Shown here one piece after another: positions 54,645 to 55,012 of a stretch of DNA of 64,000 nucleotides. The translations under genes and the position numbers were made by a program. This DNA is from Escherichia coli O127:H6 str. E2348/69 (GTDB lineage: Bacteria; Pseudomonadota; Gammaproteobacteria; Enterobacterales; Enterobacteriaceae). Below the pieces are notes generated by a model, which worked only from the letters and a program-made list of their open reading frames with translations, was not told where the DNA came from and searched no databases. The stretch is taken from assembly GCF_000026545.1 (NCBI RefSeq), contig NC_011601.1; one strand, 5' to 3'. Every line of letters starts with the position of its first letter. The stretch's first letter is position 1.

Positions 54645-55012
54645 GAGTCCCTCCCGTCAGGAGGCGTTAGTCTGAGGTTAATCGAATGTTGGTGCAAGTT
54701 GAAAAATAAGAATATTCGAGCCTGCTTCCTGACGGTTATCCTGCATATCAGGAAATGACAAAAAAGAGCGGCCCACAACACAACATGTAAAAAAGAACGA
54801 TGAAACAGGTGAAAATCGCAATTTATTGAACTGACAAACTCATGTGAGACGGATAAGGCGTGCATGTCGCATCCGGCAGGAAACAATAAGCACATTGTCA
54901 GCCATCTGCGTTATGCCGTTATACCAGAAACGAATATCTCAACGCCTGGGCGTGGCGAGGTACCAGAGTGTGTATTACGTTTAAATCACATCATCTTGCA
55001 AAGGGATTGGTT

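Follow-up and report, generated by a model that had tools for sequence, protein, structure and literature searches.

Introduction

The HcaEFCD dioxygenase and the HcaB dehydrogenase of Escherichia coli convert 3-phenylpropionate and cinnamate, which are plant- and microbiota-derived aromatic acids, into 2,3-dihydroxy derivatives that are then cleaved by the mhp pathway. In strain K-12 MG1655, the annotated gene order around the corresponding genes is csiE, hcaT, hcaR, hcaE, hcaF, hcaC, hcaB, hcaD, yphA, yphB. The gene hcaR, which encodes a LysR regulator, is divergent from hcaE-hcaF-hcaC-hcaB-hcaD, the gene hcaT encodes the associated transporter, and 5,499 bp, enclosing hcaR-hcaEFCBD, lie between the start codons of hcaT and yphA.

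The hca operon was described as absent in all phylogroup B2 strains and, by the definition used in that study, present in the others (Touchon et al. 2009, PLoS Genet 5:e1000344). B2 strains were later found to be depleted in 3-phenylpropionate catabolism genes, and genome-scale models predicted that most of them fail to grow on phenylpropanoate (Fang et al. 2018, BMC Syst Biol 12:66; PMC5996543). The absence of hca is therefore a published metabolic marker separating B2, which comprises many extraintestinal pathogens and the EPEC strain E2348/69, from other E. coli.

We analyzed a 64-kb stretch of DNA from E. coli E2348/69 (hereafter the window), in which a sequence-only reading had noticed that hcaR-hcaEFCBD is missing between hcaT and yphA, and had proposed a deletion or a never-acquired cluster with a REP-associated scar. 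The window carries the published B2 hca-null genotype, and to this extent the finding is already known: the same genes (hcaR and hcaEFCBD) are missing from the same locus, and we observed no difference between the window and the genotype of Touchon et al. (2009) and Fang et al. (2018). In neither of these papers did we find a statement of the anatomy of the junction or of the orthology of the spacer with that of Escherichia albertii. We propose that the B2 hca-null allele likely arose by an old deletion shared with E. albertii.

Absence of the hca cluster between hcaT and yphA

Both genes flanking the site are intact. On the minus strand, hcaT (53505-54644) encodes a 379-aa MFS transporter with 99.5% amino acid identity to K-12 HcaT; on the plus strand, yphA (55013-55435) encodes a DoxX family membrane protein with 97% amino acid identity to K-12 YphA. 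Their designations follow the RefSeq annotation of the identical E2348/69 sequence, in which the two genes are adjacent. With the hcaT start codon ending at 54644 and the yphA ATG located at 55013, the spacer spans 54645-55012 and measures 368 bp, the same length as in the earlier reading. When the window was searched by tblastn with K-12 proteins, csiE, hcaT, yphA, yphB, yphC, and yfhR were all found, and none of the six genes hcaR, hcaE, hcaF, hcaC, hcaB, and hcaD was found in its 64 kb.

The locus thus shares with the K-12 cluster the flanking genes (csiE, hcaT, yphA, and yphB-yphC), the 88 bp upstream of hcaT, and about 83 bp upstream of yphA. It differs by the lack of the regulator, dioxygenase subunits, ferredoxin, reductase, and dehydrogenase, all of which are gone except for 11 nt of hcaR and the stop codon of hcaD. 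The transporter gene is retained as an intact reading frame; the divergent hcaR and hcaE-hcaF-hcaC-hcaB-hcaD pair between hcaT and yphA is not. The K-12 map on which the earlier reading relied proved right: the MG1655 annotation places hcaR-hcaEFCBD between hcaT and yphA, and our alignment of the interval to MG1655 confirmed that the two genes are not natively adjacent there.

Two alleles at the hca locus of E. coli

Over 2.2 kb around the spacer, the window shows 100% identity with E. coli E2348/69 and 99.9% identity with UTI89, S88, APEC O1, IHE3034, NU14, ATCC 11775, and others. We then counted alleles in 5,426 complete E. coli genomes, taken as one set without phylogroup assignment. The contiguous hcaT-yphA arrangement was found in 1,045 genomes, which excludes an assembly artefact, and the K-12 segment with hcaR to hcaD was found in 4,379, including 4,347 with at least 80% of the segment. 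The central 198-bp segment of the B2-type spacer (see below) was present in 1,046 of the 5,426 genomes, in 1,044 of them with at least 99% identity, and never co-occurred with hca in any genome. The hca locus of E. coli therefore exists as two alleles that are nearly perfectly complementary, and the window has the contiguous form with the 368-bp spacer, as in recognized B2 strains. Strain IAI39, of phylogroup F, has the complete hca cluster.

The sole divergent copy of the spacer among the about 1,046 genomes is that of CUVET20-PYO2 (L085, 3001-3411), which is 411 bp long instead of 368. We considered whether this longer spacer could be an intermediate form and rejected this idea: a 43-bp tandem duplication within the B2 allele accounts for its length.

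In about 32 of the 4,379 genomes with hca, less than 80% of the cluster is present. In E. coli G5 (L086, NZ_CM127462.1, 3913-4935), an IS1A stands in place of hcaR to hcaD and of most of yphA. The result resembles the window in that hcaR to hcaD are gone from the same locus, but G5 has an IS1A at the junction, has lost most of yphA, and has the K-12-type spacer, whereas the allele of the window has no IS and both neighbors are intact. The loss in G5 is independent and apparently recent.

Anatomy of the spacer and of its junction

Two blocks of the window match K-12 (L001): positions 54300-54732 correspond to K-12 4503-4935 with 99% identity, and positions 54931-55299 to K-12 10264-10633 with 96.8% identity. 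Between these blocks lie 5,328 bp in K-12 vs 198 bp in the window, and this 198-bp segment has no BLAST-detectable counterpart at the K-12 locus. Simple removal of DNA from the K-12 sequence would not yield the window spacer. Comparison with the hca-positive allele of another Escherichia species (L006) accounted for most of the 198 bp.

Starting from hcaT, the spacer begins with the 5' region of this gene (54645-54732), which is common to both alleles, falls within the 99% K-12 block, and is 95.5% identical to E. albertii. It continues with the rest of the former hcaR-hcaT spacer (54733-54795), which is strongly diverged from K-12 and alignable to L006: positions 54645-54764 match the L006 hcaR-hcaT spacer with 91.7% identity over 120 nt (blastn), weaker similarity extends to about 54795, and the local alignment score of 54733-54795 is 31 vs a shuffle mean of 9.7. 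In K-12-type alleles, the 64 nt adjoining the hcaR stop (K-12 L001 4936-4999) diverge from B2, E. albertii, and L006 far more than those three do from one another.

A segment of about 110 bp that contains a REP (54796-54905) follows. It is flanked by the old spacer and the hcaR relic, is confined to this type of hca-less allele (B2 and E. albertii), and is absent from the K-12 and L006 hca-positive alleles. At 54911-54921, on the minus strand, we found the 3' end of hcaR, i.e. its stop codon and the last 8 nt, which reads TTATGCCGTTA on the plus strand and is identical to K-12 L001 5007-5017 and to the end of hcaR in L006. The bases TACCAG come directly after it, and their counterpart is the hcaD stop codon with the next bases, TAACCAG. 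This remnant of the hcaD stop (TA-ACCAG) and the hcaD-yphA spacer occupy 54922-55012, where the alignment with K-12 and E. albertii shows an 11-nt gap.

We joined the hcaR terminus (TTATGCCGTTA) to the hcaD stop (TAACCAG) in silico, which gives TTATGCCGTTATAACCAG; the window has TTATGCCGTTATACCAG, with one base missing, so that 17 of the 18 positions of the virtual junction are matched and the junction falls at 54921/54922. We estimated how often such a relic would occur by chance by comparing the unassigned 163 nt of the window with the terminal 30 nt of hcaR and hcaD. An exact match of at least 11 nt had a probability of 0.0009 in shuffles and 0.0075 in random window segments, values that leave aside the position of the match, whose two ends coincide exactly with the hcaR stop and with the point at which homology to the post-hcaD spacer sets in. 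Gene remnants are therefore present at a colinear junction; the remnant is short, and the support it gives is good, not absolute. The junction TTATGCCGTTATACCAG, made of the hcaR end and the hcaD stop, points to a deletion from an hca-positive allele.

The event that best accounts for this arrangement would be the deletion of a 5.24-kb block, hcaR-hcaE-hcaF-hcaC-hcaB-hcaD, from an Escherichia-type hca-positive chromosome. Judging from the junction, the deletion would have run from 8 nt inside the 3' end of hcaR to the end of hcaD. The order of the spacer from hcaT to yphA would then be the hcaT upstream region, the diverged old hcaR-hcaT spacer, the REP segment, 11 nt of hcaR, the hcaD stop, and the hcaD-yphA spacer.

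Age of the short allele and its relation to E. albertii

The B2 spacer is colinear with the hcaT-yphA spacer of E. albertii in its old spacer, REP segment, hcaR relic, and yphA upstream region, and E. albertii keeps 10 of the 11 bases of the hcaR relic in the same place. Between B2 and E. albertii, the central spacer shows 81.5% identity (154 of 189 aligned nt) and the conserved spacer ends 95%, while the identity at four-fold degenerate sites is 60% for hcaT and 79% for yphA. The divergence of the central segment is thus about that of unconstrained DNA in these species. Because 81.5% is close to the neutral divergence between the species, a recent deletion and a recent transfer are both ruled out: the short allele is old, not a fresh scar. 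An event local to this strain does not agree with these data, since the allele is found throughout the B2 lineage and its spacer is the ortholog of that of E. albertii. We call the deletion old because its junction and REP recur in E. albertii at about neutral divergence.

A sequence of the E. albertii spacer, ATGAAACAACGCGC, was considered as a relic of the hcaD 3' end and rejected, as it is not colinear and the match is not significant (p = 0.23-0.34). A recent introgression from E. albertii into B2 was likewise rejected, given that the central segment is just 81.5% identical and that the B2 flanks are no nearer to E. albertii than the K-12 flanks are. Compared with K-12, the B2 flanks show 95-99% identity on the hcaT side and 92-97% on the yphA side in 300-nt windows, and 92-96% identity at four-fold sites.

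The old deletion calls for an additional event, given the hca cluster of IAI39 (phylogroup F) and the E. coli-like flanks of B2. B2 is nested in an otherwise hca-positive species, and an old allele in this position needs either a long-lived polymorphism or an old recombinational replacement; B2 strains would accordingly have inherited the deletion allele or taken it up by homologous recombination. We suggest, only tentatively, that the hca-less spacer dates back to the separation of E. coli from E. albertii and has coexisted with hca-positive alleles inside Escherichia, through lasting polymorphism or through recombination between lineages.

The second of these routes can be stated more precisely. 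An hca-positive ancestor of B2 may have exchanged its own locus for the old deletion allele of another Escherichia lineage through homologous recombination in hcaT and yphA, which is a variant of the preferred explanation that differs from it in the route only. The identity of B2 to K-12 drops from 99% to about 60% at one point, 54732/54733, with E. coli-like flanks, and the sister lineage F is hca-positive, as such a replacement would have it. However, no donor-like tract is seen in the flanks, the B2 flanks being no closer to E. albertii than those of K-12, and the divergence of the 64 nt may just as well be particular to the K-12-type allele. We regard this replacement as a possible but somewhat doubtful route.

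Distribution of the hca cluster in related genera

We examined hcaT neighborhoods from 80 species representatives, in each of which the K-12 proteins were located. The arrangement hcaT-hcaR-hcaEFCBD-yphA, with the same order and orientation, was found in Escherichia (K-12 and L006), in four Kluyvera species, and in two Pseudocitrobacter genomes; Citrobacter sp. wls619 has hcaT-hcaR-hcaEFCBD, with yphA not detected there. The identities to K-12 of HcaR and CsiE are 87% and 74% in Citrobacter and 78% and 57% in Kluyvera; they track the relatedness of the genera, as would be expected under vertical descent. Four other Citrobacter genomes, C. braakii (L011), Citrobacter sp. On2M (L012), C. portucalensis (L014), and C. 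werkmanii (L015), have hcaR-hcaE-hcaF at 78-2962 of the retrieved neighborhood, about 7 kb from hcaT, and the intervening genes include a distant homolog of aldose epimerase beside hcaT.

Adjacency of hcaT and yphA without hca is widespread in Enterobacter, Lelliottia, Leclercia, and Silvania. Coding relics of hcaR, 34-103 nt long, were detected between yphA and hcaT in three hca-less genomes: Kluyvera sichuanensis (L032, 9770-9803), K. intermedia (L073, 9611-9712), and Enterobacteriaceae bacterium MGYG-HGUT-00110 (L055, 9524-9599). These relics correspond approximately to nt 670-770 of the 891-nt gene, with E-values of 5e-8 to 4e-24. Coding fragments of hcaR in these hca-less spacers prove directly that the cluster was deleted there; the cluster has thus been lost repeatedly, and a presence/absence polymorphism of hca exists within Kluyvera as well.

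These distributions bear on the alternative to a deletion, in which the cluster was never acquired: the spacer of B2 and E. albertii would be ancestral, and hcaR-hcaEFCBD would have been inserted, or recombined in, in an ancestor of the non-B2 E. coli. The orthology of the B2 spacer with that of the outgroup E. albertii, the widespread hca-less adjacency in the four genera named above, and the spacers of the Enterobacter and E. whittamii types, which are free of hca relics, all fit such a history. It is nevertheless at odds with the empty site itself, which has the last 11 nt of hcaR, including the stop, abutting the hcaD stop, so that an insertion would need to have borrowed both stop codons from its target. 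It also has to account for a cluster that sits at the same position and in the same orientation in four genera with identities following their relatedness, for the hcaR relics that prove loss in Kluyvera, and for the hca-positive state of IAI39. The C-terminus of HcaR differs between genera and, with a relic of only 11 nt, capture of target-site sequence by an inserting cluster is still formally conceivable. On balance we consider it improbable that the cluster was never acquired. Of the two origins left side by side by the sequence-only reading, deletion is thus favored, by the hcaR-hcaD junction, by the shared site in four genera, and by the hcaR fragments of Kluyvera.

Other hca-less loci were observed within Escherichia. 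In Escherichia sp. MOD1-EC7003 (L004, 9400-10000), a K-12-type hcaR-hcaT spacer is joined to the 3' end of glyA and the REPs that follow it; this junction implies a deletion of about 15 kb, from hcaR through yphH, and marks a further independent loss. Escherichia whittamii (L005, 9745-10000) and a non-coli Escherichia labeled "E. coli E69" (L003, 9745-10000) have a second type of hca-less spacer, of 256 bp and without REP, which occurs in no genome of the E. coli collection. Matches of about 30 nt in these two spacers were considered as relics of the hcaR and hcaD 3' ends and were rejected (p = 0.3-0.8 against shuffles and random genomic segments).

The REP element

The spacer was also said to contain a REP-like sequence, and it does: a single, slightly degenerate Y-type REP lies at 54848-54880 on the minus strand, in which 54850-54877 (minus strand) matches with 0 mismatches the Y-type consensus, which we take to be GCCGGATGCG-N7-CGCCTTATCCG. 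Matches to this consensus number 4 in the window vs 0 expected (100 shuffles). The element resembles enterobacterial REPs in its Y-type consensus, in its extragenic site downstream of a former gene end, and in the multiple copies present in the window, and differs from them in a degenerate 3' arm (CCGTC vs CCGGC). It does not form a BIME, which consists of two inverted REPs, as 54645-55012 holds one REP only; in E. albertii, by contrast, the spacer has a second, inverted REP-like unit besides the shared REP.

Three further consensus matches lie elsewhere in the window, at 42138-42165 (minus strand), at 49288-49315 (plus strand), and, with 0 mismatches, at 55443-55470 (plus strand). The last belongs to a REP pair (BIME) in the yphA-yphB spacer (55436-55594), and sub-threshold matches to Rfam naRNA4, a REP-derived nucleoid-associated RNA, were found at 55404-55568 in the same spacer. 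In IAI39, this REP-containing yphA-yphB spacer harbors IS1397, an element that targets REP-type repeats.

REP and BIME elements are known sites of recombination and IS insertion, and a deletion between two REPs would have a REP at both parental endpoints and its junction inside a REP. Neither feature was found. A distance of about 40 nt separates the REP from the junction; the element belongs to the segment of about 110 bp downstream of the former hcaR stop, and the hca-positive alleles (K-12 and L006) have no REP in their hcaR-hcaT or hcaD-yphA spacers with which it could have recombined. The REP is real but, on the present evidence, a bystander, and neither a REP-mediated mechanism nor, as a mechanism, the REP-associated scar of the sequence-only reading is supported. 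Downstream of a gene stop is a usual place for a REP, and this one is an ordinary extragenic repeat that was already present beyond the end of hcaR or arrived there later.

A recent strain- or clone-specific REP-REP recombination that left one REP as a scar, suggested by the REP in the spacer, by the general behavior of such elements, and by the IS1397 in the neighboring yphA-yphB REP region of IAI39, is extremely unlikely in view of the distance from the REP to 54921/54922, the REP-free spacers of the hca-positive alleles, and an allele at least 99% identical in 1,044 genomes and common to E. albertii at 81.5%.

We also considered whether the spacer might contain an RNA gene or a regulatory element. 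No Rfam family matched inside 54645-55012, no promoter-like or terminator-like consensus sites were found in this spacer, and the stability of the REP hairpin is not unusual (z = -0.79); this candidate was therefore rejected.

Functional implications

Because HcaEFCD and HcaB are missing, the established pathway predicts that the strain should not use 3-phenylpropionate or cinnamate. If the hca-less allele does date from the species split and has coexisted with hca-positive alleles, B2 would have inherited the loss of this catabolism as a niche trait, possibly under selection, and the loss would not represent decay. For a genome scan, the absence of hca mainly identifies the lineage of the window. 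What the present comparison adds to the marker is detail on its origin, i.e. an old junction common to E. albertii, alongside repeated independent losses in Kluyvera and in other Escherichia.

The transporter gene follows a different pattern from the cluster: hcaT adjoins csiE in 80 of the 80 genomes, whether hca is present or absent. This conservation suggests that hcaT may have a role independent of the hca cluster.
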